The notes beneath the pieces are model-generated. The model ran no database searches. It had not been told where the DNA came from and worked only from the letters and a program-made list of their open reading frames with translations. From sequence record SRR20825006_2856: a stretch of 32,205 bases of DNA; one strand, given 5' to 3'. The position numbers and the translations under genes were made by a program. Positions 2,468 to 25,003 of this stretch are shown here, in pieces. Each line of letters begins with the position of its first letter. The stretch's first letter is position 1.

Positions 2468-5400
2468 TTGCGTTTGAAATCTAAAATAGAAATTTTAGAA
2501 CAGGATTTTCAGCAACTTAGAAATGAAAATTCAGAGGTATTTGATTGGATAATCGAAAAGCCTATTTCAGGCTTGCTTTATGTCAATTCAGATCAAGGCG
2601 CTTCAGCCTTTTATATCTCATCATCCCTTTGGAACATATTAGGATTTGAATCATCAACGCTAGATGATCAGTCAAAGCTTTGGTCAAAAGTCTTGACTGA
2701 CTCAGGTAAAACGCTCATCGAAAAAGCTTTTAATGATTCTACCGAAGCATTCTATAAAACCATTCAACATTTTACGCTTAACGATGCTTCTGACGCAGGC
2801 CTCGACTTTACTGTAGAAGCCTGGGAACATACAGAACAGTCGGGTAAAAAGCATTTCGTTTTAAAATTTCTTGATCGGCAAATTTCCTTTTCGCAAGAAA
2901 ATATTGATTACTTACAGAAATACAACGAGATCTACGAAGAGACTAATGAGTTGGCTCTGGTAGGCGGTTGGGAGGTAGACCTAACAAATCAGAAAGTTTT
3001 TTGGTCTAGCGTGACCAAAAAAATTCACGAGGTTCCTATGGACTATGAGCCCGATATGGATACGGGAATTAATTTTTATAAAGAGGGCTGGAGCAGAGAG
3101 AAAATTTATAAAGCGTTTTACGATTGTGTAGATAATGGAGGCTCCTTTGATGCTGAATTTATTATGGTCACCACAACCGGAAAAGAAAAATGGGTGCGTA
3201 GTCTGGGAAGAGCCGTTATGCAAAACGGAAAGTGTGTGCGTGTTTATGGAGCTTTTCAAGATATTACTGCTCAGAAACTTCAAGAGGAATCACTACGCAA
3301 GACGGAATTACGATTTACTCAAATTTTTGAAAATTCAGCCATCGGAATCATTTTGGTTAATACCAAAAATGAACTACAGTTGGTAAATACGGTGGCTAAA
3401 AAGATCTTTGGCTTTGAAGATCGTCCTGATACCGAAATACTAAAATACACCTTTAAAGATGTTTTGTTGCCGGAATATCTAAACACGGCTATTGAAAAAC
3501 GAAATCAATTACTGCGTGGCGAAATCGAGCACTATAGTTTTGAGGCAGCCTGTTATAACAGATCTGGGAAAGTAATATGGTGTAATCTTAATTGCTCTTT
3601 GGTCAACGACGGAAGCGTAGATGATGACTTGATCATAACGCAGGTTGAAGATATTACACAACGTAAAAAATTACAAAAGAACGCCCTGCAGAATGCTTCT
3701 AGGTTTAAAAGAGTTTTTGAGAATGCTCCACACGGAATGGTTCTTTTGGATCTCAAGGGTAACCTTAGAAACGTCAACAAAAGTCTTTGTGATATTTTAG
3801 GGTATTCAAAAGAAGAACTATTAGAAAAATCTATTGAAGATTTTACCTATGCAGAAGATCGCGATGAAGTGTTCACGTATTTTTCAAAAATCGTGGCTAA
3901 AGAAATTCCTTCATTTCAGTTAAGTAAACGCTATCTGCATAAGGATGGAGAAGTGAGAGAATGTAATTTAACGATATCAGGCTTGCTGGATGAAAACAGA
4001 GATGTTCGCTCATTCATAGCACATGTGGTAGATGTTACTGAGGAGCAAAAAGCACAACAAGCTTTAGAAGAAAGTTTGCTGGATCATAAGGCTTTACTCA
4101 ATGCAACCAGCCGTGTGATTATTGTGGAAACCGATTTAGATCACAGAATTAAGAGATTTAATAAAGGAGCTGAAAATCTTTTAGGATACACTGAAGATGA
4201 AGTAATTGGTAAGTTATATCCTGAGGTTTTTTATGTGAAGGAAGAAGTGGAAGCCTATGCTAATCAACTGGAAAAAGAGTACGGGGAAAAGGTAGCTATA
4301 GAAGATGTGTTCACATTTAAATTAGGTAAAGGTAAAATCGAATCTAACGAGTGGAACTACATCAAAAAGAATGGCGACAAACTTCCGGTACAACTTATTG
4401 TTACGCCTATAAAAAATGATAAAGGAGAATCTAAAGGTTATCTGAAGATCTCTACAGATATTTCGGCTTTAAAAGCAATGGAAACCTCCTTGCTGCAAGC
4501 TAAAGAGCGCGCAGAGCAGGCTAATCAATTTAAGTCAGAATTTTTAGCAAATATGAGTCACGAAATCCGTACTCCTTTAAATGGAGTTATAGGGTTTACT
4601 GATATTTTAATGCAGTCCAAGCTTGATCAAAATCAGACCAAATATGTAGAGACCATATATTCTTCTGCCGTTTCGCTGCTTGATTTACTTAATGATATTC
4701 TCGATTTTTCAAAGATAGAATCCGGTAAACTTAACTTGAGTGAAGAGCGCGTAAACATTGCAGACCTCTGTGCTCGTTCTGTGGAAATGATCAGGCACCA
4801 GGCGCATCAGAAAAACCTTGAAGTGCTGCTCAATATTTCAACTAAAATTGAAGAATATATCCTTGCCGATGGGTTGCGGTTACGTCAGATACTCATCAAC
4901 TTGTTGAGCAATGCAGTGAAGTTTACGCACAAAGGTGAAATAGAATTAAAAGTTCAAGCGCAGGATATCCCTGATGATCCAAATACTAAACGTTTTACTT
5001 TTTCTTTGCGCGACACCGGTATTGGTATTGCGCCTCAGAACGTAAAAGAGATTTTTGATGCCTTTAATCAAGGGGATGCTTCTACAACCCGCAAGTACGG
5101 GGGAACAGGATTAGGACTGACCATCAGTAATAGACTGCTTGAGTTGATGCACAGTAAGCTTGAAGTTTCTAGTGAATTGGGAAGTGGCACCACATTCTCC
5201 TTTAGTGTTGATTTTGCCATTGAGGCTAAAACAGAACGCGCTGCTTCATATTCTCAAGAGTTGAAGAGAGTTTTGGTGGTAGATGATAATCAAAACAATC
5301 GAGTGATCATCGCCGAATTACTCGCCAGCCGAAAGATAAAAACCATTCAGGCGGCAAACGGAATTGATGCATTAGAAATTTTGCAAAAGGACACTGATTT

Positions 5401-6082
5401 CGACTTGGCGCTCATTGATTACGCTATGCCGTACCTAAATGGTCTTGATTTAATTGAGCATATAAGAACAGATCTAAAGGTAACGCAGGAGCAATTGCCT
5501 ATCGTGTTGCTGCACAGCTCAGAAGAGGATCAAACTATAAATGATCGCTGTAAAAAACTTGGTGTTCATAATAAATTAGTGAAGCCTGTTTTGCGCAAAG
5601 TTCTTTTTGAAACTATGGATAGCCTAGGTTTTAGTAACGATCAGTTTGCTCAAAAAGTCGACTTTGACGCTATTGAAGATTTACAAGACAAGCTTACAAT
5701 AATGGTAGCCGAAGATAATCCTGTAAATAAGTTCTTGACTCGTACGATCTTAAATAAAATAGCTGGGCAAGCAAAATTAATCGAAGTAGAAAATGGCGAG
5801 CAGGCTGTAGCAGCATTTAAAAAGAATCACATTGATATCATCTTGATGGATATTCAAATGCCGATATTAAGTGGTTATGAAGCTACGCAACAAATCAGAG
5901 CGTTGGAGCCTAAAGAAGAGCGCGTACCTATTATAGCGTTAACCGCTCGTGCTTTAAAAGGGGAGCGGGAGCGTTGCTTGTCGTATGGTATGGACGATTA
6001 TATTTCAAAACCATTAATTCTGGAAGATATTAAAGCTGTGATCAATGCGTTTTTAGAACGAAAAAAGATAACTTTAAAATAA
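2468..6082 (+). CDS. Cytoplasmic hybrid sensor histidine kinase: multiple PAS/PAC, HisKA, HATPase, two receiver domains (TTG start)
   Basis: PAS/PAC ends FQDIT, VEDIT, VVDVT, STDIS. H-box FLANMSHEIRTPLNG, N-box NLLSNAVKFT, DTGIG, GGTGLGL. REC1 VVDDN...IDYAMP and REC2 AEDN...MDIQMP...SKP. No obvious TM helix. Confidence 0.93.
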   Translation: MRLKSKIEILEQDFQQLRNENSEVFDWIIEKPISGLLYVNSDQGASAFYISSSLWNILGFESSTLDDQSKLWSKVLTDSGKTLIEKAFNDSTEAFYKTIQHFTLNDASDAGLDFTVEAWEHTEQSGKKHFVLKFLDRQISFSQENIDYLQKYNEIYEETNELALVGGWEVDLTNQKVFWSSVTKKIHEVPMDYEPDMDTGINFYKEGWSREKIYKAFYDCVDNGGSFDAEFIMVTTTGKEKWVRSLGRAVMQNGKCVRVYGAFQDITAQKLQEESLRKTELRFTQIFENSAIGIILVNTKNELQLVNTVAKKIFGFEDRPDTEILKYTFKDVLLPEYLNTAIEKRNQLLRGEIEHYSFEAACYNRSGKVIWCNLNCSLVNDGSVDDDLIITQVEDITQRKKLQKNALQNASRFKRVFENAPHGMVLLDLKGNLRNVNKSLCDILGYSKEELLEKSIEDFTYAEDRDEVFTYFSKIVAKEIPSFQLSKRYLHKDGEVRECNLTISGLLDENRDVRSFIAHVVDVTEEQKAQQALEESLLDHKALLNATSRVIIVETDLDHRIKRFNKGAENLLGYTEDEVIGKLYPEVFYVKEEVEAYANQLEKEYGEKVAIEDVFTFKLGKGKIESNEWNYIKKNGDKLPVQLIVTPIKNDKGESKGYLKISTDISALKAMETSLLQAKERAEQANQFKSEFLANMSHEIRTPLNGVIGFTDILMQSKLDQNQTKYVETIYSSAVSLLDLLNDILDFSKIESGKLNLSEERVNIADLCARSVEMIRHQAHQKNLEVLLNISTKIEEYILADGLRLRQILINLLSNAVKFTHKGEIELKVQAQDIPDDPNTKRFTFSLRDTGIGIAPQNVKEIFDAFNQGDASTTRKYGGTGLGLTISNRLLELMHSKLEVSSELGSGTTFSFSVDFAIEAKTERAASYSQELKRVLVVDDNQNNRVIIAELLASRKIKTIQAANGIDALEILQKDTDFDLALIDYAMPYLNGLDLIEHIRTDLKVTQEQLPIVLLHSSEEDQTINDRCKKLGVHNKLVKPVLRKVLFETMDSLGFSNDQFAQKVDFDAIEDLQDKLTIMVAEDNPVNKFLTRTILNKIAGQAKLIEVENGEQAVAAFKKNHIDIILMDIQMPILSGYEATQQIRALEPKEERVPIIALTARALKGERERCLSYGMDDYISKPLILEDIKAVINAFLERKKITLK

Positions 6083-6104
6083 TGCTTGCAATACCGTTTT
6101 TAAA

Positions 6105-6821
6105 TTGACTGCTGCTCATAAACATATAATTCTTGTTGATGCTGATCTGGAAGCTCAGGTACGATTTAAATCTAATTTTTCTAGTAAAGAAGTAGAGATC
6201 ATTGCCTTTACTTCAGGAATGGGAGCCATTCAATACATCAAGCAAACCGGTGCGCCAGATCTTTTGGTGCTTGAAGAAGCAGCTAAGCCTTTAGGAGCCG
6301 TACAAACATTAAATTATCTCAAGGATCAAATAGCGTTTACAGCTCCGGTGGTGGTTATTGCAGAAAACTTAGAGGAAGATACAATAGCGATTCAAGCACA
6401 AAAAGTGATTACAAAACCATATAAATGTGAAGATATCGCTTTCATCAAAGAGCTTTTAATGCTTAAAGAGTTGGCAGGCGCCGAAGAAGAAAAATACTAT
6501 AAACTCGATTATCTTAAGGAGCTCGCGGAAGGTGATACCGATTTTATTAAAGAAAGTCTCAAGATTTTTATACAAACCGTTCAGCCACAAATTGAAGAAC
6601 TGACGCAAAATCATGCATCAGAAAATTTTAAACAAGTTGGCCAACTGGCGCACGCTGTTAAGCCTTCTTTTGAAATGCTTCAGAATTATAAAGCCGCAAA
6701 AATTTGTGATGATCTCGCACATCACGCCCAGCCGGACGAAATGGAACATCTTGTTCATCAACTTCTGCAAGAACATCAACATATTATAACGAGTCTAAAA
6801 GCAGATTTTTCTGATTTATAG
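6105..6821 (+). CDS. Receiver-like (pseudo-REC) plus Hpt phosphotransfer domain protein (TTG start)
   Basis: N-terminal REC fold pattern (IILVDAD...DLLVLEE...ITKPY). C-terminal LDYLKELAEGD...LAHAVKPSF Hpt-type His motif. Confidence 0.8.
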   Translation: MTAAHKHIILVDADLEAQVRFKSNFSSKEVEIIAFTSGMGAIQYIKQTGAPDLLVLEEAAKPLGAVQTLNYLKDQIAFTAPVVVIAENLEEDTIAIQAQKVITKPYKCEDIAFIKELLMLKELAGAEEEKYYKLDYLKELAEGDTDFIKESLKIFIQTVQPQIEELTQNHASENFKQVGQLAHAVKPSFEMLQNYKAAKICDDLAHHAQPDEMEHLVHQLLQEHQHIITSLKADFSDL

Positions 6822-6853
6822 GAATGCTTCTAAAGCCTTAACAATAAACTCCA

Positions 6854-7222
6854 ATGAAAAAAAATATCCTAGTAGTTGAAGATAATAAGCAGGTTGCTGA
6901 AGCCATTGTACATAGTTTGGAAAAAGCAGGCTACACCGCGAGAGTATGTTCTGATGGAACCGCAGCCATCGAAAATTTAAAGAGCAGCATCTTCCACTTA
7001 GTGATTATCGACCTATTATTACCCTTCACTTCAGGTATGAACGTCATTAAATGGTCAAAAACCGAATTTCCAACCTTACCCATTATCGTATTGTCTTCAA
7101 TTTTAGATGAAAATATAGTAACCCGAACGTATTTAATGGGCGCTTATGATTATATCACCAAGCCATACCACCCTTCACGACTATTACAAAGTGTCGAAAA
7201 AGGGCTAAAGCAAGCAGAATAA
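6854..7222 (+). CDS. Single-domain response regulator (CheY-like)
   Basis: ILVVEDN, IIDLLLP (phospho-Asp), VLSS, GAYDYITKP; 122 aa with no output domain. Confidence 0.92.
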   Translation: MKKNILVVEDNKQVAEAIVHSLEKAGYTARVCSDGTAAIENLKSSIFHLVIIDLLLPFTSGMNVIKWSKTEFPTLPIIVLSSILDENIVTRTYLMGAYDYITKPYHPSRLLQSVEKGLKQAE

Positions 7223-7251: not shown

Positions 7252-7259
7252 TACCTTTG
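7252..7259 (+). promoter_or_regulatory. Bacteroidota sigma-70 -7 element (TACCTTTG) for the metal-efflux cluster
   Basis: Exact match to TAnnTTTG, 9 nt before ATG 7269. No clean -33 TTTG seen. Confidence 0.65.
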
Positions 7260-7268
7260 CAAATCAAG

Positions 7269-7694
7269 ATGAAGCAGGTAGCAAAACAAATAATGGCAAT
7301 AGTTCTGGCATTCGTGGTCGTTTGTACCACAATGTCGTTTTCTATAAATATGCATTATTGTGGCGAAACTTTAGTTGATTACACGGTGATCAACAAAGCC
7401 AGTTCTTGCGGAATGGATCAGATGGCTAGTTCGCTGAGTAACATTGACTGTGAACAACAAGTCACTCAAAAGTCGTGCTGTCAAGACAAAACTTTTTCTG
7501 CTGCCGGCCAGAACGAATTGAAGCCTAGTTTTAGTTCGTTTTCTTTAGAGCAACAGCTTTTTGTAACCACCTTCTGCTATGCTTATGCGGCGCTCTTGGC
7601 CCCACAAACCACTGCTTCAACAGACTTCTTTGCGTATACCCCTCCTCAGCTCGTCAGGGACATTCAGACCTTAGACGAGGTTTACTTGATTTGA
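7269..7694 (+). CDS. HYC_CC_PP-type small exported/membrane protein; candidate metal-responsive leader ORF
   Basis: Hydrophobic N-terminus, H29-Y30-C31, SCGM, C70-C71, P125-P126 near the C-terminus. ATG 7269 preferred because the TTG at 7257 lies inside the -7 box. Confidence 0.8.
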   Translation: MKQVAKQIMAIVLAFVVVCTTMSFSINMHYCGETLVDYTVINKASSCGMDQMASSLSNIDCEQQVTQKSCCQDKTFSAAGQNELKPSFSSFSLEQQLFVTTFCYAYAALLAPQTTASTDFFAYTPPQLVRDIQTLDEVYLI

Positions 7695-7695
7695 T

Positions 7696-7898
7696 AGGTA
7701 TTGTTTAGACATTCTTCGTCTAAATTTTAAGGTTTTCGCATTCGCGAAAAAACTGCTGTACTTCAGTTTTTAACAAATACATTTTATGGCGTGACCTTAA
7801 AAAGCTATGTATTTAAGGCTATACCGGTAATTTAAAATGTATTTGTTGCGAGTGCCTCACAGGTTTGCCCGGGAATCATTTACGTTCACACAATACCT
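7696..7898 (+). promoter_or_regulatory. Structured intergenic RNA leader of cusA (multi-hairpin, long-range closing helix)
   Basis: Inverted repeats: 7704-7710/7718-7724, 7733-7739/7744-7750, 7748-7755/7764-7771, perfect 15-bp 7772-7786/7833-7847 with inner 7795-7801/7812-7818, and 7696-7704/7890-7898. Confidence 0.6.
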
Positions 7899-7905
7899 CA
7901 TTTTT

Positions 7906-10900
7906 ATGCTCAACAAAAGCATTAAGTTTTTTATCGAAAATAAGCTAGTCGCTTTTTTACTCTTAGCCCTCTTTTTGGGTTGGGGGATCGCCACGGCACC
8001 CTTCAATTGGGATGGTATTTCTGAAATTGCCGGGATTCCGAGAGCTCCGGTTGCGGTGGATGCAATTCCCGATCTTGGTGAAAATCAGCAAATTGTTTTT
8101 ACGAAATGGCAAGGGCGGTCGCCACAGGATATTGAAGATCAAATCACATATCCGTTAACTTCTGCGCTTTTAGGAATTCCCGGAGTAAAAACCATCCGAA
8201 GCTCTTCCATGTTTGGTTTTTCAAGCATCTATCTCATTTTTGAAGAAGACGTTGAATTTTACTGGAGCCGAAGCCGCATTCTTGAAAAGCTCAATTCACT
8301 TCCTGCAAATCTTCTGCCGGAAGGGGTTAATCCGTCTTTGGGGCCTGATGCTACCGGTTTAGGACAAATCTTTTGGTACACTCTTGAAGGGCGCGATGCA
8401 GACGGAAACGTCACTGGCGGCTGGGATTTGCAAGAACTGCGTAGCATTCAGGATTATTATGTGAAATACAGTCTGGCTTCGGCTGGTGGTGTTGCTGAGG
8501 TGGCATCAATAGGAGGATATGTACAGGAATATCAGATTGATGTAAACCCAGAACTGCTAAAACAATACAATATAAGTCTTGATGCACTGGTCAAGGCGGT
8601 CAAGTCAAGTAATGAAGAAATTGGTGCCCAGACCCTAGAGATCAATAAGGCTGAGTATCTGGTGCGGGGTTTGGGTTATATTAAATCTCTTGAAGATATC
8701 GAGAATGCCGTAGTGACCTCAGAAGCTTATACGTCGATCCGTGTAAAAGATGTGGCTCGCGTTCATATGGGGCCGGCACCACGCCGCGGAATTTTAGATA
8801 AAGAAGGTGCTGAGGTGGTAGGCGGAGTAGTAGTAGCGCGCTACGGTGCTAATCCTATGGAGGTCATCACCAATGTAAAGGCACAGATCAAGGAACTTAG
8901 CGCGGGCTTACCCTCAAAAACTTTAGCTGATGGCAGAACCTCTCAGCTTACAATTGTACCGTTTTACGATCGTACCCAGTTAATAGAAGAGACTTTGGGC
9001 ACACTTGATGAAGCCCTCACCATGGAAATCCTGATTACCATTCTTGTGATCGTCGTTATGCTTTTTAACTTAAGGGCTTCCCTATTAATTTCCGGATTAC
9101 TCCCCGTGGCTGTCTTTATGGTCTTTATCGCTATGAAGCTTTTTGAGGTTGATGCAAATATTGTTGCGCTCTCCGGGATCGCTATCGCAATCGGGACGAT
9201 GGTAGATGTAGGCGTAATTCTTACCGAAAATATGATTCGGCACCTTGAAGAGGCTGATAAAAATGACTCAAAACTGTCATACAACACCCTGATCTATAAT
9301 GCCACGGCAGAAGTTTCGGGCGCTATTGTTACCGCTGTGCTCACTACCATTATAAGTTTTATTCCGGTGTTTACATTGATGGGTGCAGAGGGTAAATTGT
9401 TCCGCCCCTTGGCGTTTACTAAAACCGCAGCATTAACCGCGTCACTCATCATCGCACTTTTCTTGATTCCGCCTTTTGCGGCTATAATTTTTAGGAAACG
9501 AAGATTTAAATCAACGACACAAAACATAGTTTGTGCACTTCTAATTCTAATAGGAAGCATCGCAGTGTTTTTCGGTGTTTGGCTGGGGCTTGTATTGATC
9601 GCTTTTGGAATGCTGTACTTTTTACGCAAAACGAAAAAACTTCCGTTTCAAAACCTTAAACATGCTGAGATCATAATCACTGTTTTAGCGATCGTTTTTT
9701 TGTTGGCAACCTATTGGAGGCCTTTAGGCTTCAACCGAAGCATTTTTATAAACCTCGTGTTTGTAACCCTGATTTGCACGTTGTTTTTTGGCCTGTTCTG
9801 GGTTTTACGACGGTTTTATGACCGTATTTTAAGATGGGCATTAGCAAACCGACTCTTGTTTCTTGCCCTACCGGCGACCCTGCTGATCAGTGGCGCGTGG
9901 ATCTATTCAAAAATGGGTAAGGAGTTTATGCCGGCACTCAACGAAGGAACTTTCTTGCTGATGCCTACTTCGCTTCCTCACGCAGGCGTGGAAGAAAATA
10001 AACGCGTGTTGCAACAACTCGATATGGCTGTGGCGAGTATTCCCGAAATAGAAACGGTCGTCGGCAAAGCAGGAAGAGCTGAGTCTGCACTTGACCCCGC
10101 GCCTTTGTCAATGTATGAGAATATTATTCAGTACAAACCAGAATATATGTTGAACGCAGCCGGAAGAAAGCAGCGGTACAAGGTGGATGAGCAAGGTTAT
10201 TTTCTGCTACAAGATGGTAGCAAAGCGTATAATCCCAATATGCAGACCGAAGCGGTTGCACCTGAAATGAGTATGAAATTTCCGGTGACTGCTGAAGATT
10301 TAATAGAAGATGAAGAGGGTGCGTACTATCGCAACTGGCGTCCAGAGATTCAATCTCCTGACGCAATCTGGAAGGAGATTGCGCGCTTAACGCAACTTCC
10401 CGGAGTGACTTCGGCACCAAAACTTCAACCTATAGAAACCCGGTTAGTAATGCTGCAAACAGGGATGCGTGCACCTATGGGAATTAAGATCAAAGGGCAG
10501 AATTTACAGCAGATTGAAGCGTTTGGCTTTCAGCTTGAAAAACATTTAAAACAAGTTGAAGGCGTAAAAGCCGAAGCGGTTTTTGCCGATCGAATCGTAG
10601 GAAAACCCTATTTGCTTATAGATATTAAACGAGACCGGCTTGCGCGTTATGCTATTGCGATTGCAGATGTGCAGCAAGTGCTTGAAGTTGCCGTGGGCGG
10701 AATGCCCATCACTCAAACTGTAGAAGGTCGCGAGCGGTATTCGGTGCGGGTGCGTTATCCTAGAGCGCTTCGGGAACATCCTGAGGATCTTAAAAATACT
10801 TATGTTCCGGTGGCGATGGGAAATCCGGTACCACTCAGTGAATTGGTGGAAATACGCTACGAGCAGGGACCGCAAGTAATTAAAAGTGAAGACACCTTTT

Positions 10901-11643
10901 TAGTGGGGTATGTTTTATTTGATAAGCTAGATGCTTATGCTGAGGTTGATGTGGTAGAACAGGCACAAGCAGTGCTTCAGTCTAAGATAGACTCCGGAGA
11001 GTTGGTGGTTCCGCAGGGCATCAACTATCAATTTACAGGAACGTATGAGAATCAGTTGCGTGCAGAGAAGACCTTGACCATTGTGGTGCCCATGGCATTG
11101 CTCATCATTTTCTTAATTCTTTACTTTCAGTTTAAATCGGTGAGCACTTCATTTATGGTCTTTACCGGGATCGCGGTGGCATTTGCCGGAGGCTTTATAA
11201 TGCTTTGGCTGTATGGTCAAGCGTGGTTTTTGAATTTTGAAATTTTTGGAGCGAATCTAAGAGATTTGTTCCATATGAAAACTATAAACCTGAGCGTTGC
11301 GGTTTGGGTAGGTTTTATTGCGCTCTTTGGGATCGCAACCGATGATGGCGTCGTGATGGCCACCTACTTAACGCAGACTTTTAGTAAAACGAATCCTTCT
11401 GATCGGGAGGGAATTCGGCAAGCTACGCTACGTGCAGCAAACAAGCGCATCAGACCGTGTTTGATGACCACGGTGACCACAATTTTAGCGTTGTTGCCGG
11501 TACTCACGTCAACCGGAAGAGGTAGTGACATTATGATCCCAATGGCGATCCCCATATTTGGCGGGATGATCATTGATGTCACCTCGTACTTTATCGTGCC
11601 GGTGTTGTATAGTTGGAAAAAAGAAATAGCCTTGAACTCATGA
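7906..11643 (+). CDS. cusA: CusA/SilA-family heavy-metal efflux RND permease (Cu(I)/Ag(I) type)
   Basis: VDAIPDLGENQQIV, LGPDATGLG, IAIGTMVD, RIRPCLMT. Mets matching the CusA Cu site in LLMP, PLSMYE and LVMLQTG. ATG 7906 (MLNKSIKF) preferred over 7837, which lies inside a hairpin arm. Confidence 0.92.
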   Translation: MLNKSIKFFIENKLVAFLLLALFLGWGIATAPFNWDGISEIAGIPRAPVAVDAIPDLGENQQIVFTKWQGRSPQDIEDQITYPLTSALLGIPGVKTIRSSSMFGFSSIYLIFEEDVEFYWSRSRILEKLNSLPANLLPEGVNPSLGPDATGLGQIFWYTLEGRDADGNVTGGWDLQELRSIQDYYVKYSLASAGGVAEVASIGGYVQEYQIDVNPELLKQYNISLDALVKAVKSSNEEIGAQTLEINKAEYLVRGLGYIKSLEDIENAVVTSEAYTSIRVKDVARVHMGPAPRRGILDKEGAEVVGGVVVARYGANPMEVITNVKAQIKELSAGLPSKTLADGRTSQLTIVPFYDRTQLIEETLGTLDEALTMEILITILVIVVMLFNLRASLLISGLLPVAVFMVFIAMKLFEVDANIVALSGIAIAIGTMVDVGVILTENMIRHLEEADKNDSKLSYNTLIYNATAEVSGAIVTAVLTTIISFIPVFTLMGAEGKLFRPLAFTKTAALTASLIIALFLIPPFAAIIFRKRRFKSTTQNIVCALLILIGSIAVFFGVWLGLVLIAFGMLYFLRKTKKLPFQNLKHAEIIITVLAIVFLLATYWRPLGFNRSIFINLVFVTLICTLFFGLFWVLRRFYDRILRWALANRLLFLALPATLLISGAWIYSKMGKEFMPALNEGTFLLMPTSLPHAGVEENKRVLQQLDMAVASIPEIETVVGKAGRAESALDPAPLSMYENIIQYKPEYMLNAAGRKQRYKVDEQGYFLLQDGSKAYNPNMQTEAVAPEMSMKFPVTAEDLIEDEEGAYYRNWRPEIQSPDAIWKEIARLTQLPGVTSAPKLQPIETRLVMLQTGMRAPMGIKIKGQNLQQIEAFGFQLEKHLKQVEGVKAEAVFADRIVGKPYLLIDIKRDRLARYAIAIADVQQVLEVAVGGMPITQTVEGRERYSVRVRYPRALREHPEDLKNTYVPVAMGNPVPLSELVEIRYEQGPQVIKSEDTFLVGYVLFDKLDAYAEVDVVEQAQAVLQSKIDSGELVVPQGINYQFTGTYENQLRAEKTLTIVVPMALLIIFLILYFQFKSVSTSFMVFTGIAVAFAGGFIMLWLYGQAWFLNFEIFGANLRDLFHMKTINLSVAVWVGFIALFGIATDDGVVMATYLTQTFSKTNPSDREGIRQATLRAANKRIRPCLMTTVTTILALLPVLTSTGRGSDIMIPMAIPIFGGMIIDVTSYFIVPVLYSWKKEIALNS

Positions 11644-12866
11644 AAAATAAAATAATCATAGCAAGCATAATCCTACTGGGCACAACAGTTGTTGCGAACG
11701 CTCAGGATTTAAGTGCATATATCGCACAAGCAGAAGCTCAAAACCCCACGCTTCAAGCCTATGCATTGCGATATGACTTGGCACAAGAACAGGTAAACGA
11801 AGTGAATAGCTTACCGGATACTGAATTTGGTGTGGGATATTTTGTTGAAACTCCTGAAACCCGAGTAGGAGCTCAGCGCGCGCGCTTTTCGGTTAAGCAA
11901 ATGTTGCCATGGTTTGGTACTATCGCTAAGCGACAGGAATATCAAACTGCTATAGCAGACAATGAATATCTGGAATATGTGATCGCAAAGCGAAAGCTTA
12001 GCCTTGAGGTGGCACAAAGTTATTACCAACTCAATGGCATCCATGCAGAAGAACAAGTAGTGCAGCAAAATCTGGACTTGCTAGACCGTTTTAAAGAACT
12101 TGCGCTAAATGCTGTTGAGGTGGCCGAGGCTTCGGTGGTAGATGTACTCAAGCTAGAAATGCGCCAAAACGAACTCAACGCACAACTTGCCATTCTAGAC
12201 GAACGTAAACACGCTGCAGCCCTTCAGTTTAAAAACATCTTAAACGTGGCTCAGGATACTCCGATACAACTAGTGGATAGTTTGACGATACCGCAATTAG
12301 AAACAAGCGATTCAATCGAAGCCCTTGAAACCAATCCGGAGCTATTGAAATATGATGCGCTGTATAAAAGTATCAACCAGGCCGAACTGCTCAACCAGCA
12401 AGAGTCGGCTCCTAAGTGGGGTGTGGGACTTGATTACATTCCGGTCAGTGAGCGAACAGATCTATTTCCTGCAGATAACGGCAAAGATATCGTGATGCCT
12501 ATGGTATCGGTTTCGGTGCCCATTTTCAATTCAAAATATAAGTCGGTTACCCGTCAAAATGAGCTTCGGCAACAACGCATCACAGCGGAAAAAGAACAGC
12601 GCTTGAAGTATTTAGAAAATCTTTTAGCAGAAGCTAAACAGTATAGAAATGCTGCGCGCATTAACTTTAATGCACAACAACAGAACATTGCTCAAGCCCA
12701 AGATGCTGAAGCTATTTTACTCAAAAGTTATGAGACCGGTACGATTGACTTTAGTGATGTACTTGATATTCAAGAATTGCAATTGAGCTTTCAACGTAAA
12801 CAAATACAGGCTGTTCAAGATTTTTATGAGCAGACTGCTTTAATCAATTATTTAACCAATAACTAA
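11640..12866 (+). CDS. TolC/CusC-family outer-membrane efflux protein
   Basis: Signal peptide ending ANA-Q, helical OEP-like repeats (QMLPWFG, VSVPIF, YETGTIDFSDVLD). ATGA overlap with the cusA stop. Confidence 0.88.
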   Translation: MKNKIIIASIILLGTTVVANAQDLSAYIAQAEAQNPTLQAYALRYDLAQEQVNEVNSLPDTEFGVGYFVETPETRVGAQRARFSVKQMLPWFGTIAKRQEYQTAIADNEYLEYVIAKRKLSLEVAQSYYQLNGIHAEEQVVQQNLDLLDRFKELALNAVEVAEASVVDVLKLEMRQNELNAQLAILDERKHAAALQFKNILNVAQDTPIQLVDSLTIPQLETSDSIEALETNPELLKYDALYKSINQAELLNQQESAPKWGVGLDYIPVSERTDLFPADNGKDIVMPMVSVSVPIFNSKYKSVTRQNELRQQRITAEKEQRLKYLENLLAEAKQYRNAARINFNAQQQNIAQAQDAEAILLKSYETGTIDFSDVLDIQELQLSFQRKQIQAVQDFYEQTALINYLTNN

Positions 12867-12870
12867 AACC

Positions 12871-13476
12871 ATGAAAAAGACCTTAAATTTTATAAGTATA
12901 GCCGTAGTAGCCTTAAGCTTAGTTTCCTGCGGAAATGATAAAAAATCAAGCTCAGAGACAGATGTCAAATTAGAAACCCACGAAGAAAAACCTATGCAAA
13001 TGGAAGAAGTTGATGAAATGGGCGAAAAAAATAAAGCTTCGGAAGAAGCACAGGAGAACAAAATTGACAATGCGCCGCTTGCCTTTGCAGATAACAATTC
13101 CAATGCCGTTTGGGAAGCTTATGCCAAAGTTCAGCAGGCTTTAGTTGCTAGTGATTCAGAAAAAGCAAAACAAGAAGCAGCCCAACTTGCTATGATTTTT
13201 GACGAAAGAAATGCAAAACTCAAGACTTTGGCTGAAGGAATAGCCACGACTGATGAATTGCCGGCACAGCGCAAGGCGTTTGCAGCATTCTCTACGGGAG
13301 CAAAAGCCTATTTTAAAAGTACCATTAAGGCAGGAACACTGTACGTGCAGCATTGCCCGATGGCTTTTGATGGAAAAGGAGCCGACTGGCTAGCTAAAGA
13401 TACCGCAGTGACCAATCCGTATTTTGGAGCTAAAATGCTCAATTGCGGTTCAGTGACGGCAACAATAACTCAGTAA
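12871..13476 (+). CDS. DUF3347-type lipoprotein, putative metal-binding protein
   Basis: Lipobox LVSC, His/Met-rich linker, C-terminal HCPMA...WL...NPYFG.KML.CG. Confidence 0.82.
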   Translation: MKKTLNFISIAVVALSLVSCGNDKKSSSETDVKLETHEEKPMQMEEVDEMGEKNKASEEAQENKIDNAPLAFADNNSNAVWEAYAKVQQALVASDSEKAKQEAAQLAMIFDERNAKLKTLAEGIATTDELPAQRKAFAAFSTGAKAYFKSTIKAGTLYVQHCPMAFDGKGADWLAKDTAVTNPYFGAKMLNCGSVTATITQ

Positions 13477-13485
13477 ACTGGTACT

Positions 13486-14706
13486 ATGACAGACTTTTTA
13501 AAACAATGGGGCGAAGCGGCTTATACCACTGCGGGATTCTTCTGGATGGCGCTGTGGGCATTTGCACTGGGCTACATCATAAGCAGTATGATTCAGATTT
13601 TTGTTACCGAAAAGCGTATGCAAAAAACCATGGGCGGCGACGAGACTAAAGGCGTCTTGCTAGGAACCTTTTTTGGGTTTATCAGCAGTTCGTGCAGTTT
13701 TGCAGCGCTTGCTTCGACAAAATCGTTGTTTAAAAAAGGAGCGAGTTTTGTAGCCAGTATCGCCTTCTTACTGGCTTCAACCAATTTGGTCATCGAACTT
13801 GGGATCATTATTTCCATTTTTTTGGGTTGGCAATTTGTGGTGGGTGAGTATGTAGGTGGCGTGTTACTCATTTTACTCAGTTGGATTTTGATCAGATTGA
13901 TCAATCCTAAAAAGTTGATTGAGAATGCCCGAAAAAATCTAGGCGAGAAAGAGGGCGATACGGATGCAGATTCCAAATCTTGGAAGCAGAAAATGAAATC
14001 TGAAGAAAGTTGGGCAAAAGTGGCCAAACAGTACGGGATGGAATGGAAAATGGTCTGGAAAGACGTGACCGTAGGCTTCACCATCGCGGGTATCGTAGCT
14101 GCTTTTGTGCCTGATGCGTGGTTTCAGACGCTATTTATAGGTTCGGGAGACGGAAATACAGACTTTAGTTTTCTCGAGATTTTAGAACATATTATAGTGG
14201 GGCCGGTCGCTGCATTCATCACTTTTATAGGTTCTATGGGTAACATTCCGCTTGCGGCTTTGCTGTTTGGTAAAGGCGTAAGTTTTGCCGGTGTGATGGC
14301 ATTTATTTTCAGTGATCTGGTGGTGTTTCCTATTTTGAGAATTAACGCTAAGTATTATGGTTGGAAGATGTCTCTATTCATCCTGTTTTTACTGTTCACT
14401 TCCTTAGTGGGCGCATCGCTACTGTTGCATTACGGTTTTGAAGCTTTTCAATTACTTCCTGATCCGAGTCAGGTGAAAGTTCAAGACACTTCTTATTTTA
14501 AACTGAATTATACCTTTTTCTTGAATCTGGCTTTTCTGGCAGGTTCGGGTTACCTCCTCTACCTAGGCTTTTTTAAACATAAAGATATGATGCATATGAA
14601 AGAAATGGCGCCCAAAAGCAAAACCTTAGAGCGCACCTTAAAATATGCAACTTTAGGTTGTTATGTGTGGCTAACCGCAGGTTTATTGATCAAGTTTTTT
14701 AACTAA
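13486..14706 (+). CDS. Predicted permease (DUF318/ArsP-like)
   Basis: Many TM segments, SSCSFAA and FLLASTNL motifs, HKDMMHMKEM near the C-terminus. Confidence 0.78.
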   Translation: MTDFLKQWGEAAYTTAGFFWMALWAFALGYIISSMIQIFVTEKRMQKTMGGDETKGVLLGTFFGFISSSCSFAALASTKSLFKKGASFVASIAFLLASTNLVIELGIIISIFLGWQFVVGEYVGGVLLILLSWILIRLINPKKLIENARKNLGEKEGDTDADSKSWKQKMKSEESWAKVAKQYGMEWKMVWKDVTVGFTIAGIVAAFVPDAWFQTLFIGSGDGNTDFSFLEILEHIIVGPVAAFITFIGSMGNIPLAALLFGKGVSFAGVMAFIFSDLVVFPILRINAKYYGWKMSLFILFLLFTSLVGASLLLHYGFEAFQLLPDPSQVKVQDTSYFKLNYTFFLNLAFLAGSGYLLYLGFFKHKDMMHMKEMAPKSKTLERTLKYATLGCYVWLTAGLLIKFFN

Positions 14707-14747
14707 AGCCAATGACATAGCTATAATCAAATCTTAATATTCAAATA

Positions 14748-15479
14748 ATGACACATACTTATAAAATTACAGGAATGACGTGTGAAGGATGCAGATCTGG
14801 CGTTGAGGCTAAATTGAATGCCGTGCCCGATGTAGATCACGTCGAAGTCGATTTAAATAATGGTGAAGCTCAGATCACGATGCATAAGCATATTGCTACG
14901 GAAACTCTTCAACAAGCCTTACCTTCAAAATATAAGATCTCAGAAACGGGAAATCATGCACAGCCAAAATCAAATGTGTTTATAAATTCAACTGCTGAAA
15001 CATCACAGAGCAAAATTCAGCAACTTAAACCTTTGTTTTTAATTTTTGCTTTCTTGATCGCTGCAGCAGTTTTATTGCATAAAGACACTTGGGACTGGCA
15101 GGCGATGATGCTCGATTTTATGGGATTGTTTTACATCGTATTCAGCTTTTTTAAATTGTTAGACCTTAAAGGTTTCCCGGCGAGCTTTAGCATGTATGAT
15201 CCCTTGGCTAAGGCGATCCCGGTCTACGGTTGGGTGTATCCGTTTATCGAATTGGCACTGGGCCTATGCTTTTTAATGCGGTTTCAGATTACCGTTGCAC
15301 TTATAGTGACCTTAGTCATTTTAGGCATTACCACAATTGGCGTTACACGCACGTTGTTGGACAAAAAAGCGATTACCTGCGCTTGTCTAGGCACTGCTTT
15401 AAAACTGCCTATGACCGAAGCTACTTTTATCGAAAATGCATTAATGATCATAATGGCTCTGGTGATGCTGTTAATTTAA
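14748..15479 (+). CDS. HMA domain fused to MauE/DoxX-like membrane domain
   Basis: GMTCEGC HMA motif at the N-terminus. C-terminal TM bundle with YPFIEL and CACLG. Confidence 0.85.
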   Translation: MTHTYKITGMTCEGCRSGVEAKLNAVPDVDHVEVDLNNGEAQITMHKHIATETLQQALPSKYKISETGNHAQPKSNVFINSTAETSQSKIQQLKPLFLIFAFLIAAAVLLHKDTWDWQAMMLDFMGLFYIVFSFFKLLDLKGFPASFSMYDPLAKAIPVYGWVYPFIELALGLCFLMRFQITVALIVTLVILGITTIGVTRTLLDKKAITCACLGTALKLPMTEATFIENALMIIMALVMLLI

Positions 15480-15489
15480 AACCTACTTT

Positions 15490-17190
15490 ATGAAAAAGAT
15501 TGTAGCATTCAGTTTAACGGCATTGGTTCTTGGTTTGGCGCTTGGGTATCTTCTTTTTAATACATCGGAAGAAGCGAAAGAAGTACCTACGCACGAGCAT
15601 AGTGAGGATACTGCGCTTTGGACCTGCTCTATGCATCCTCAAATCTTGCGAAATGAACCCGGAGATTGTCCCATTTGTGGGATGGATTTGATTCCGGCAC
15701 AACAAGAAAACACTAGTTTAGCAGTCAATCAATTCAGAATGACTGAGCGTGCGATCGCTCTGGCGGATATTCAGACGACCGTTGTGGGCAATTCAGGAGA
15801 AATAACCTCTGAATTGAAATTATCAGGAACCATAGCCATAAATGATGATCAAGTGGCCACGCAGCCGGCACATTTTGACGGTAGAGTAGAGCGTTTGATG
15901 GTAACTTCTGTGGGGCAACAAGTGCGTAGAGGCCAGCAAGTGGCGACTATCTATTCGCCCGAACTGGTCGCTGCACAGCAAGAATTGGTAACCGCGGCAA
16001 AACTTAAAGATAAACAGCCAAAACTCTATGAGGCGGTGCGCAACAAGTTTAAAAACTGGATGATCTCTGATGCACTTTTAGATGAAATTGAAACTACCGG
16101 AAATACGGTGACGCGTTTTCCAATCTATGCGCACGTTGCGGGAGTCGTGCGTGAATTGATGGTAAGCGAAGGTGCGCATATTATGGACGGCAATCCTATA
16201 TTTAAAGTAGCCAATCTGAATACGGTTTGGGCCGAATTTGACGCGTATGAGCATCAGATCAATCAGCTTAAAATTGGTCAGGATTTAGAGATCACTACAA
16301 ATGCTTATCCAGATCAGCGATTTAATGCCAAGATCTCTTACATAGATCCTGTGCTCAATAGTGCGACCCGAACGGTGACGGTACGGGCTACCTTGACGAA
16401 TCCCCAAGAAGTATTAAAACCCGGAATGTTTATTGAAACTAAACTGATGGGAAGCACTTCTGAAGCGAGCACGATCACAGTACCGGCTTCGGCGGTGTTG
16501 TGGACGGGTGATCGCTCGCTGGTATATGTGAAACCTAAAAGTGACCAATCGGTTTTTGAAATGCGAGAAGTTACCTTAGGAACCAAATCTAGAGATTATT
16601 ATGAAGTTCTAAACGGATTGTCGCCCGGCACCGAAATTGTTACCAATGGCACGTTTACCGTTGACGCTGCTGCTCAGCTTAGCGGCAAAAAATCAATGAT
16701 GCATCAAGGTACCGGTTTTGAATTACAAGAAACAGAGTCCAATTTTCTGTTATCTGAAGCATTTCAGAAGGAATTAAATGCGGTGTTGCCATCCTATTTT
16801 GCACTGAAGGATGCTTTTGTAGCATCAGATGAGCAAGAGGTGCAAAAAGCATCAGAAACCTTCAAAGAGAACATCGAAGTCTTAAAAGTAGACGATTCTT
16901 CAACCGAAGTTCAGAGACTACTGGCTACTGTTCTAGAACAAGCGGCGAAAATTTCAAATAGTTCCGCTTTAGCAGAGCAACGCGAAAACTTTATTAATTT
17001 GAATGTGCATTTTACTCCATTGGTACAGAACAGTACAGCGATAAAGCCTTACCTGTTTGTGCAGCGCTGCCCAATGGCCAACAATAGTCAAGGAGCCATT
17101 TGGTTAAGCAATTCTGATGAAATTAAAAATCCGTATTACGGCGAAGCGATGCTCACCTGTGGAAGCACCATTGATACTCTGGGAGATTAA
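15490..17190 (+). CDS. cusB: CusB-family RND periplasmic adaptor with N-terminal heavy-metal-binding domain and C-terminal DUF3347
   Basis: WTCSMHPQI...PGDCPICGMDL, IYSPELVAAQQE, TRTVTVRA, LKPGMF. C-terminal RCPMA...NPYYG.AML.CG. Confidence 0.88.
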   Translation: MKKIVAFSLTALVLGLALGYLLFNTSEEAKEVPTHEHSEDTALWTCSMHPQILRNEPGDCPICGMDLIPAQQENTSLAVNQFRMTERAIALADIQTTVVGNSGEITSELKLSGTIAINDDQVATQPAHFDGRVERLMVTSVGQQVRRGQQVATIYSPELVAAQQELVTAAKLKDKQPKLYEAVRNKFKNWMISDALLDEIETTGNTVTRFPIYAHVAGVVRELMVSEGAHIMDGNPIFKVANLNTVWAEFDAYEHQINQLKIGQDLEITTNAYPDQRFNAKISYIDPVLNSATRTVTVRATLTNPQEVLKPGMFIETKLMGSTSEASTITVPASAVLWTGDRSLVYVKPKSDQSVFEMREVTLGTKSRDYYEVLNGLSPGTEIVTNGTFTVDAAAQLSGKKSMMHQGTGFELQETESNFLLSEAFQKELNAVLPSYFALKDAFVASDEQEVQKASETFKENIEVLKVDDSSTEVQRLLATVLEQAAKISNSSALAEQRENFINLNVHFTPLVQNSTAIKPYLFVQRCPMANNSQGAIWLSNSDEIKNPYYGEAMLTCGSTIDTLGD

Positions 17191-17433: not shown

Positions 17434-18510
17434 ATGACCACATACAGCGTAATTACCGGAACCGGAATTTATTTACCAAAGAAAAAAGTAAGCAACGATG
17501 ACTTCTTAGATTTTGCTTTTTACGAATCTAACGGAACACCCATTGCAAAAGATAATCGGTATGTGGTAGATAAATTTAAAGAGATCACCACGATTGAAGA
17601 GCGCCGTTATGTAGCCGATGATTTGGTCGCTTCTGATATCGCGTATTTTGCTGCAAAAGATGCGATCAAAGATGCGCAACTTGATCCTGAGACACTGGAT
17701 TATATTATTGTTGCTCATAATTTTGGAGACGTTAAACACGGTTCAAACCGAAGCGATATGGTGCCGGCTCTGGCTGCTAGGGTCAAGCATAAATTAAAAA
17801 TCAAGAATCCGGAGTGTGTGGCTTATGACGTGCCCTTTGGTTGTCCCGGCTGGTTACAAGGGATGATCCAGGCTGATTATTATATTAAATCAGGCGACGC
17901 TAAAAAAATTCTGGTCATTGGAACCGAAACCTTATCTAGGGTTATTGATTTACACGATAGAGACAGTATGATCTATGCTGATGGGGCAGGAGCGACTATT
18001 CTAGAAAGCAGAGAAGCTGATCAGCGCATCGGAATTTTAGCACATAAAACCCGTTCAGACACGTATCGTTATGCCGAAATGCTTACGATGGGATGTTCTT
18101 ATAATATTACCGAAGAAAATAAGCAGGATCTTTATTTAAAAATGAACGGAAGACGTTTATATCAGTATGCGTTAGAAACGGTACCACTTTCTATCAAAGC
18201 TTGTTTAGATAAAGCCGAAGTGCCGATCGAAAAGGTAAAGAAAGTGTTGATACATCAAGCAAACGGCAAAATGGACGATGCGATCATAGACCGACTGTAT
18301 AAACTATACGGATATGAAGAAGCACCAGAAGGCATAATGCCGATGATCATTTCGTGGTTAGGGAATTCTTCTGTAGCCACCGTACCTACCTTACTGGACT
18401 TAATTTTAAAAAATAAAGTGGAAGGCCACAGCATAGAAGCCGGGGACCTAGTAGTTTTTGCTTCGGTAGGAGCGGGAATGAATATTAATGCTGCGGTTTA
18501 CCAATTTTAG
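17434..18510 (+). CDS. fabH: 3-oxoacyl-ACP synthase III (FabH family)
   Basis: Catalytic Cys-His-Asn in FGCPG, HQAN, GNSS. Also ADGAGA and SVGAGM. May be a paralog rather than the primary FabH. Confidence 0.88.
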   Translation: MTTYSVITGTGIYLPKKKVSNDDFLDFAFYESNGTPIAKDNRYVVDKFKEITTIEERRYVADDLVASDIAYFAAKDAIKDAQLDPETLDYIIVAHNFGDVKHGSNRSDMVPALAARVKHKLKIKNPECVAYDVPFGCPGWLQGMIQADYYIKSGDAKKILVIGTETLSRVIDLHDRDSMIYADGAGATILESREADQRIGILAHKTRSDTYRYAEMLTMGCSYNITEENKQDLYLKMNGRRLYQYALETVPLSIKACLDKAEVPIEKVKKVLIHQANGKMDDAIIDRLYKLYGYEEAPEGIMPMIISWLGNSSVATVPTLLDLILKNKVEGHSIEAGDLVVFASVGAGMNINAAVYQF

Positions 18511-18638
18511 AATGTTTTTGTTTGACGGTGTAAGTGCTTGATTGTTATAATTTTGCGCACTTTGTTGAATTTTTAGATTTAATTAATATTATTATTGATA
18601 ATACTTTTCATAATTAAATCTTAAACATTAACATTTAA

Positions 18639-22368: not shown

Positions 22369-22370
22369 CT

Positions 22371-24581: not shown

Positions 24582-24591
24582 AATTTAATCC

Positions 24592-25002
24592 GTGGCAGAA
24601 GATTATATTTTATCGATAGAAGACAATAACACTGATATTGCTTTGATGAACAGGATATTTCAGAAGAATATTCCGCATTACGGCATTAAACACATCTCAG
24701 ATGGGCAGGAAGCGGTAGCTTTTTTAGAGTCTGAAGCATTTAGATTGCAGCAGCCAAAATTAGTGTTGCTGGATATCAAAGTACCTCGTTTAAACGGATT
24801 GCAGATTTTAAAAAAATTTAGAAAGATCGAGGCGTATTTAGGGATTCCGGTGGTAATGATGAGTTCGTCAGACCGGAAGGATGAAATAATAAAAGCGTAT
24901 AAATTTGGTGCGAATAGCTTTATTGAAAAACCGCGCACCTATCCCGAATTATCAAAGGCTTTACCGGCCTTGATTAACTATTGGATTGTTTACAATAAAT
25001 AA
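24592..25002 (+). CDS. Phytochrome-associated single-domain response regulator (Rcp1/BphR-like; GTG start)
   Basis: IEDN, LLDIKVP, MSSS, GANSFIEKP, C-terminal YW motif typical of phytochrome receivers; directly follows bphP. Confidence 0.9.
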   Translation: MAEDYILSIEDNNTDIALMNRIFQKNIPHYGIKHISDGQEAVAFLESEAFRLQQPKLVLLDIKVPRLNGLQILKKFRKIEAYLGIPVVMMSSSDRKDEIIKAYKFGANSFIEKPRTYPELSKALPALINYWIVYNK

Positions 25003-25003
25003 T

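Follow-up and report, generated by a model that had tools for sequence, protein, structure and literature searches.

A helix between the stop codon of an HYC_CC_PP leader gene and the start of cusA suggests translational coupling of a metal pump in Bacteroidota

A 32,205-nucleotide stretch of DNA (sequence record SRR20825006_2856; the whole stretch is called the window below) carries a short leader gene of the HYC_CC_PP family, a structured linker RNA and the gene of a cusA-type heavy-metal pump, which we propose may together form one translational control unit. The window is from a Leeuwenhoekiella-type flavobacterium; its closest locus is that of L. palythoae, and the two leader proteins are 96% identical. 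The features of the putative unit are the following.

7252–7259, + strand: predicted Bacteroidota −7 promoter box TACCTTTG (TAnnTTTG; pattern match), with transcription predicted to start at about 7264
7269–7694, + strand: leader gene, 141 amino acids, HYC_CC_PP family (NF047658, NCBIfam match), TGA stop codon at 7692–7694
7284–7343, + strand: signal-peptide-like or membrane-anchor segment, residues 6–25, the family's most conserved stretch
7353–7481, + strand: Cys/His/Met-rich part, presumed extracytoplasmic, with conserved positions in H29-Y-C31, C47-G-M49 and C70-C71
7545–7598, + strand: second hydrophobic or amphipathic helix, residues 93–110 (AlphaFold2 (AF2) helix, predicted local distance difference test score (pLDDT) about 85)
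7641–7646, + strand: codons of Pro125-Pro126, each proline at least 90% conserved, four codons used
7647–7691, + strand: conserved C-terminal tail of 15 amino acids with G/C-ending codons (codon use) and a local hairpin, 7650–7655 with 7674–7679 (weak hairpin consensus)
7696–7704, + strand: 5′ strand of the closing helix P1, from 2 nt 3′ of the stop codon (9 bp with 7890–7898 in the minimum free energy (MFE) structure of 7692–7908)
7705–7889, + strand: linker interior, with a hairpin (7705–7710 with 7718–7723) and a large branched domain (7731–7877) in the MFE structure
7890–7898, + strand: 3′ strand of P1, ending 7 nt before the cusA AUG, within the cusA translation initiation region (MFE structure)
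7906–11643, + strand: cusA-type heavy-metal resistance–nodulation–division (RND) pump gene, 1,245 amino acids from ATG 7906 (TIGR00914, 798.5 bits, cut-off 701)

The leader gene and cusA in the window and its relatives

A scan with one genome per species yielded 532 stretches encoding relatives, and in 78 of the best 80 of these cusA comes immediately after the leader, on the same strand; of the two exceptions, one ends too early and the other has an HMA gene after the leader. The gap between leader and cusA measures 91–271 nt across the loci, with a median of 114 nt. Residue 1 of the window's cusA product aligns at ATG 7906 in an alignment with 78 relatives, and since homology sets the cusA start there, the gap in the window is 7695–7905, or 211 nt. 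An in-frame ATG at 7837, inside the structured linker, would give a longer cusA open reading frame (ORF) of 1,268 amino acids, and we rejected it as the start because homology supports 7906. Automatic annotation may pick ATG 7837 for cusA. The remaining gaps within the window's cluster are one overlap, then 4, 9, 41 and 10 nt, that is, all at most 41 nt. A first-pass annotation of the window, made from its sequence, had suggested surveying gene neighbourhoods to see whether HYC_CC_PP genes come first and are followed by a long gap; in nearly all relatives a long structured gap and a metal-transport gene do follow.

The window's pump has methionine at all three positions aligned with the metal site of E. 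coli CusA, the three-methionine Cu(I)/Ag(I) site of CusA/CzcA pumps, whose residues we take to be M573, M623 and M672. Given these three aligned methionines and the HMA and HMBD domains encoded downstream, the predicted cusA product fits a Cu/Ag pump.

Several observations place the leader at the head of the transcript. The TAnnTTTG pattern lies within 120 nt 5′ of the leader ATG in 67 of the 78 loci, with its end mostly 5–10 nt from the ATG, and no linker of the 78 contains it; the gene upstream of the leader is on the opposite strand in 37 of 78 loci. Because the −7 box precedes the leader only and these upstream neighbours are on the opposite strand, we take the leader to be the first gene and cusA to be without a recognizable promoter of its own, consistent with the first-pass description of the leader as the first ORF after a promoter. 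Scanning the linker for sigma-70-type promoters found nothing, with a scanner that does not cover Bacteroidota promoters. By the published position rule for the Bacteroidota −7 box, which places its G at −5 (PMC6847099), the 5′ leader of the mRNA is predicted to be about 0–5 nt across the loci and about 5 nt in the window. Such a nearly leaderless mRNA would be unusual for the group, in which 87% of predicted transcripts are reported to have leaders longer than 10 nt (PMC6847099). A 677-nt metatranscriptome contig covers 7281–7959, including the whole linker, which is a weak hint because contigs cannot prove a single transcript; contigs from three RNA runs start at 7264 (run X1), 7273 and 7281, again a weak hint because contigs cannot prove ends. 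Parts of the window without RNA-contig cover (runs X1, X2 and X4) carry no information.

A helix from the leader stop codon to the cusA start

When folded singly, nearly all linkers are branched and closed by one long helix, whose 5′ strand lies at the leader stop codon and whose 3′ strand stops a few bases short of the cusA AUG. A consensus for the main clade, obtained from a MAFFT alignment of 29 sequences, consists of this closing helix and two hairpins. Paired positions in that alignment can pair in 89% of cells, compared with 32–45% when the partners are slid, and 17 of the 37 pairs show compensatory change. RNAalifold run on a 70-sequence MAFFT alignment had returned no structure, the interior being too gappy, and was replaced by the 29-sequence subset and a covariance model built from it. 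That model gave 62 matches at E ≤ 1 in 970 kb, of which 61 fall at the junction after a leader and one, a weak match, elsewhere. For 57 distinct sequences, in an alignment fitted to the covariance model (the 29-sequence subset was aligned with MAFFT only), 88.5% of cells are paired compared with 35–45% when slid, compensatory change appears in 34 of the 37 modelled pairs, and none of 500 shuffles reaches the observed values. The 211-nt linker that the first-pass annotation had called structured is thus confirmed in length, and covariation across relatives puts its structure beyond chance.

For a view independent of alignment, we scored a helix as present when at least 6 bp of the MFE structure joined the first 20 nt, counted from the stop codon, to the final 25 nt 5′ of the AUG, and applied this to 109 unique junctions that included members from other Bacteroidota families. 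The closing helix was found in 102 of the 109, compared with 253 of 1,090 dinucleotide shuffles (23%) and 21 of 88 other co-directional junctions with gaps of 60–200 nt in the same loci. It starts inside the stop codon in 91 of the 102 and ends mostly 5–7 nt before the AUG. The sequences forming the helix are unrelated between Bacteroidota families and the helix itself is kept, while the interiors of the linker differ between clades. Cognate strands pair with a mean of −13.9 kcal/mol versus −8.2 kcal/mol for distant non-cognate strands, with 503 of 4,544 non-cognate pairs doing as well. The leader stop is TGA in 78 of 79 loci, compared with 17% among long ORFs of the same loci; in the main clade this TGA is paired with a UCA upstream of the AUG, and one member with a UAA stop pairs UAA with UUA.

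Searches of Rfam 15 gave no match at the gathering score for the window and four further loci, and none at E ≤ 1 for positions 6350–6600 of locus L017; a literature search found no paper on a flavobacterial czcA RNA motif. A multi-helix RNA with covariation, a junction sequence conserved within the main flavobacterial clade and a closing duplex of about 20 bp, which we infer to be long enough for a double-strand-specific nuclease, would also be expected if the linker acted alone, without leader translation, as a ligand-binding riboswitch, a site for a protein or small RNA, or an RNase III-type processing site. We consider this improbable. The element was found only directly after HYC_CC_PP genes, as the 61 of 62 model matches indicate, the stop codon already contains the start of its 5′ strand, and the Rfam searches offer no known class to which it could belong. 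The number of interior hairpins also varies between families and insertions of about 95 nt (in the window) and about 160 nt (in loci L043 and L066) are tolerated, which argues that the RNA has no conserved pocket.

The first of these insertions adds about 95 nt to the interior of the window's linker compared with six other Leeuwenhoekiella species, whose gaps are 113–122 nt. Within the branched domain, 7772–7786 forms a perfect 15-bp hairpin with 7833–7847 that is absent in those six species and may be a small inserted palindromic element. Sequences similar to its arms occur at 69–83 (one mismatch) and 18508–18522 (two mismatches), giving four matches compared with 0.38 expected. The insert of about 160 nt in L043 and L066 is a different one, in the same linker RNA.

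The leader protein and the modelled opening of the cusA start

The leader matches NF047658 with 96.5 bits against a cut-off of 28, its residues 6–141 spanning profile positions 1–131 of 131. The copy of Pfam that we searched contains no family for it, and a precomputed PF26622 label is present on its relatives. The motifs of the family's name, from which alone we took them as family-defining, are H29-Y30-C31 (7353–7361), C70-C71 (7476–7481) and P125-P126; together with the export-like N-terminus, the length of 141 amino acids and the position of the prolines 15 codons before the stop, all lie where the first-pass annotation had placed them. Residues 1–25 comprise a basic start, a hydrophobic core and a small-residue end, SFS (23–25), in a protein of fewer than 150 amino acids, although they may instead form a membrane anchor. 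Across a set of 84 sequences, V16, V17, T21, S23 and F24 of this segment are invariant, as are H29, C31, C47, C70 and C71, and Q95, Q96, F98, F102, Y106 and F110 of the second helix are at least 90% conserved. AF2 with the family alignment gave an overall pLDDT of 59, with no confident globular fold and the tail as coil. Only two helices are confident, residues 2–21 (pLDDT 72–75) and 93–110, and confidence falls below 50 for residues 46–70.

Conservation extends into the tail. Exactly 15 residues follow the PP in 144 of 191 members, and CC and PP are 54–55 residues apart in 148 of 189. Over 79 loci, the G/C content at third codon positions is 0.60 for the 11 codons after PP (127–137) compared with 0.27 for codons 1–124, and this run of G/C-ending codons may reflect either a rare-codon slow-down or a constraint on the RNA. 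The tail hairpin, 6 bp in the window, has a weak consensus with 59–99% of cells paired, and we kept it out of the main claim for that reason. The last two residues, L140 and I141, are nearly invariant while encoded by 6 and 3 codons, respectively, and amino-acid conservation with free synonymous change runs over the whole ORF, including P125, P126, L140 and I141. As selection at the amino-acid level continues to the last residue, the leader peptide must be made and must matter. At termination the last roughly 30 residues, containing PP and the 15-residue tail, would lie in the exit tunnel, an arrangement compatible with an arrest-type peptide.

To relate leader translation to the cusA start, we modelled the ribosome as a forced single-strand stretch and read out the mean unpaired probability of cusA positions −18 to +6. 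In this model the mean was 0.35 for free mRNA and 0.34 with the ribosome at PP, compared with 0.61 with the leader stop codon in the A site; the corresponding values for the window were 0.46, 0.40 and 0.74. Opening by more than 0.15 occurred in 56 of 70 loci in the stop state versus 1 of 70 in the PP state. With PP situated 45 nt 5′ of the helix, a ribosome pausing there cannot expose the cusA start region, and such a pause could only gate the number of ribosomes that reach the stop codon.

Bacteroidota are reported to initiate translation without Shine–Dalgarno pairing, with initiation tuned by structure around the start (PMC6847099). Combined with the opening modelled in the stop state, this makes translational coupling of cusA to the leader the best-supported mechanism, with cusA initiation expected only after a ribosome has read through the leader, and judged from sequence and folding such coupling through the linker RNA is well supported. 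We propose four steps. Transcription would begin about 5 nt before the leader ATG and run through the linker into cusA. In the free mRNA, P1 would pair the region of the leader stop codon with the stretch just before the cusA AUG, so that cusA would be poorly translated, since Bacteroidota ribosomes, lacking Shine–Dalgarno pairing, need an open initiation region. A ribosome reaching the leader stop would unwind the outer part of P1 and adjoin the cusA AUG, allowing initiation by the same or a new ribosome. Finally, the nascent leader protein, through its presumably exported Cys/His/Met-rich part and its conserved PP-plus-15-residue tail held in the exit tunnel at termination, would probably set how many ribosomes reach the stop and how long they dwell there, in the copper-sensing manner of CutF and CruR. 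The first three steps, coupling through P1, we regard as likely. The fourth is put forward tentatively, at somewhat less than even confidence and by analogy, and the explanation as a whole has about an even chance of being right (probability roughly 0.5).

The analogy in the fourth step is to exported, Cys-containing leader proteins with proline motifs, CutF of Rhodobacter and CruR of Bordetella, at which ribosome stalling is reported to control the next gene (PMC9973294; PMC9426467). For CutF, a stem-loop over the ribosome-binding site of the next gene is described as being opened (PMC9973294; bioRxiv 10.1101/2025.02.05.636593). CruR is described as acting through Rho-dependent termination, with copper relieving arrest at a terminal RAPP (PMC9426467). 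On this analogy, metal sensing by the nascent leader chain is plausible.

Six observations weigh against the proposed mechanism. First, the covariance model missed the window's own linker, those of loci L001–L008 and 11 other junctions, so that the broader helix claim rests on the alignment-free test, and it is the closing helix and the context, rather than sequence, that place the window in the linker-RNA class. Second, the helix is absent from 7 of the 109 junctions, which precede two HMA genes, two CusB genes, one TonB receptor gene, one gene of unknown type and one cusA. Third, the helix calls are MFE predictions on AU-rich RNA, and about a quarter of the controls are positive too. Fourth, a ribosome at PP leaves the helix closed in the model in all but 1 of the 70 loci. 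Fifth, PP is absent, with xP in its place, in 25 of 216 members, and six such loci retain the helix and cusA. These last two points bear directly on the first-pass annotation, which had held that ribosome progress on the leader sets cusA expression and had looked to a pause near PP. Its first idea survives in that the RNA architecture ties cusA to leader translation, but the start opens in the model when the ribosome is at the stop codon (56 of 70 loci) and not when it pauses at PP.

The sixth observation is that the whole protein is conserved, the signal-like segment included, which fits also a stable membrane or periplasmic protein with a function of its own. Coupling would then be constitutive only: leader and cusA would be made together, and HYC_CC_PP would be a stable protein, anchored in the membrane or periplasmic, that binds metal and serves the pump as an accessory, such as a CusF- or CzcI-like chaperone or gate, and not a nascent-chain sensor. 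The conserved features would suit such an accessory, with four invariant cysteines, one invariant histidine and a second helix as well as the signal-like segment; family members are of constant approximate size and never fused, the helix is kept in members without PP, and its opening in the model requires no arrest. We nevertheless regard an accessory as rather unlikely, as the same leader family and helix also stand before genes for TonB-dependent receptors and a beta-propeller protein, a setting that suits a portable regulator better than a subunit of the pump. Neither the Cys-rich part nor the tail has a fold that AF2 predicts with confidence, and a mature protein would have no obvious use for the fixed spacing from PP to the stop, the run of G/C-ending codons or the conserved last residues.

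Comparison with known systems and breadth of the family

Translational coupling of cusA to the HYC_CC_PP leader has its closest published parallel in CutF of Rhodobacter capsulatus (cutFOG; DUF2946). CutF, also shorter than 150 amino acids, has an N-terminus of signal type, Cys motifs and prolines at its C-terminal end (PMC9973294), to which the signal-like N-terminus, the cysteines and the PP of the present leader may correspond. CutF heads a copper-detoxification operon, and an intergenic mRNA structure is reported to shield the initiation region of the next gene and to be opened by the leader-translating ribosome (PMC9973294; bioRxiv 10.1101/2025.02.05.636593). Likewise, the HYC_CC_PP leader is predicted to be the first gene of a metal-homeostasis operon in which modelled mRNA structure shields the next start. 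The two differ in their cysteine motifs, with CxxxC in CutF and HYC, C and CC here; neither a CxxxC nor a CXXC copper-binding motif occurs in the leader's 141 amino acids. CutF ends in PPP, whereas the PP here lies 15 residues from the end, bordering the last-15-residue filter of the published survey discussed below. CutF has a local stem-loop over a Shine–Dalgarno site in place of a stop-to-start closing helix around a branched insert of 70–250 nt, and the downstream gene here, unlike in CutF, encodes an RND pump. None of the 84 HYC_CC_PP members matches Pfam DUF2946 (PF11162) at E ≤ 1, and PF11162 itself is nearly absent from the Bacteroidota sampled, being carried by 3 of 81 genomes, 1 of them above the cut-off. 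The HYC_CC_PP unit resembles CutF in outline yet fails the DUF2946 sequence test.

CruR (Bp2923) of Bordetella pertussis shares the Cys and proline motifs in an upstream ORF, the copper-related operon and the long intergenic gap, and one HYC_CC_PP subfamily precedes TonB-dependent receptor genes as CruR precedes BfrG. CruR has a terminal RAPP and is described as working by Rho termination (PMC9426467), whereas the HYC_CC_PP leader has no RAPP, its PP is internal and the initiation region is predicted to be sequestered. Attenuation of transcription in the CruR manner, in which leader translation would control Rho- or hairpin-dependent termination in the linker instead of or besides opening the initiation region, seems very unlikely to us here. 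The gap is long (91–271 nt) and ribosomes are not expected on it, CruR is reported to act so over a 162-nt gap (PMC9973294; PMC9426467), and many loci have a U-rich run after the first inner hairpin. A terminator scan nevertheless found no site in the linkers of the window, L017 and L020. The linker is AU-rich and highly structured, properties that disfavour Rho loading, and an RNA-library contig spans it whole, a weak indication. Above all, attenuation would leave unexplained why the one universal feature is a helix linking the stop codon with the AUG region, which translational coupling accounts for.

Ozturk et al. (2023) surveyed CutF-like proteins by length (<150 amino acids), signal peptide, PP near the C-terminus and a same-strand gene downstream, and report (list D) that 19% of 5,334 proteins are from Bacteroidota, with ACR_tran (CusA/CzcA) among the neighbours; the survey distinguishes 29 clusters (PMC9973294). 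Its account of these proteins gives intergenic lengths only and describes no conserved stop-to-start helix (PMC9973294). With CutF-like proteins before ACR_tran genes already published there (PMC9973294), a Bacteroidota analogue of CutF is not a new idea. What is new here is a family-wide helix joining the leader stop codon to the start of the next gene, in a phylum without Shine–Dalgarno initiation. Classical coupling by long-range mRNA pairing, as between coat and replicase in RNA phage MS2, is alike in that pairing with a translated region farther 5′ keeps the downstream start shut until ribosomes translate that region. It is unlike the arrangement here, where the stop codon itself marks the beginning of the upstream strand and, despite the structured insert between them, stop and start come to lie only a few nucleotides apart through the helix.

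Downstream of cusA the operon continues as follows.

11613–17190, + strand: rest of the operon, encoding an outer-membrane factor, a DUF3347 lipoprotein, an ArsP-type permease, an HMA–MauE fusion and a CusB-type adaptor with HMBD and DUF3347 (profile matches; gaps of at most 41 nt)

Several parts of this region, at 12871–17190, are unusual: the DUF3347 lipoprotein, the ArsP-type permease, which is weakly similar to SO_0444-type Cu/Zn exporters, the HMA domain joined to a MauE-type membrane domain, and the CusB-type adaptor with HMBD and a C-terminal DUF3347. Profile searches within the window found no CusRS-, CueR- or CsoR-type regulator among its genes, in agreement with the first-pass remark that the cluster lacks one. 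The genes directly 5′ of the leader (2468–7222, same strand) encode a PAS-rich hybrid histidine kinase, an Hpt protein and a receiver-only protein; as this trio is syntenic only in some Leeuwenhoekiella (L001, L005 and L008), it is probably unrelated to the metal operon. Farther downstream, 18742–26114 holds a cluster with a CheB–CheR–PAS–histidine kinase fusion, a bacteriophytochrome kinase, two receiver proteins and a heme oxygenase.

The HYC_CC_PP family is widespread: of 401 Bacteroidota genomes drawn evenly, 116 contain it, 106 of them above the cut-off, and it occurs in 81 of 180 genera, with 3,792 clusters at 50% identity (E ≤ 0.001); a literature search found no paper naming HYC_CC_PP or PF26622. 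The subfamily before TonB-dependent receptor genes (L081–L090, L093, L094 and L097, all one genus) has the C-terminus ...NAPP(L/F)xKLYxQYIFYA, and in it, too, the helix begins at the stop codon. The same stop-to-start helix links another member to a beta-propeller protein gene, and some members stand before small HMA proteins or CusB without the helix. A wider reading, which we offer as doubtful, is that HYC_CC_PP and the stop-to-start helix serve Bacteroidota across the phylum as a portable 'sense-while-exporting' switch. Periplasmic metal would be reported by the nascent Cys-rich chain with its last roughly 30 residues still in the tunnel, and the dwell of the terminating ribosome on the base-paired UGA would decide initiation of the next gene, be it for a pump or an importer. 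Were this so, structure-guided termination–reinitiation across a 100-nt insert would replace Shine–Dalgarno-based control.

Metal regulation in Bacteroidota is poorly understood, and no classical metal regulator lies beside this operon. Our analysis ties a named yet unstudied protein family to a concrete, testable RNA mechanism. If confirmed, the mechanism would show translational gene coupling in a phylum lacking Shine–Dalgarno initiation and would carry the CutF/CruR principle over to a family unrelated in sequence. Annotation would gain a rule for the true cusA start and a new class of cis-regulatory RNA that is not in Rfam.

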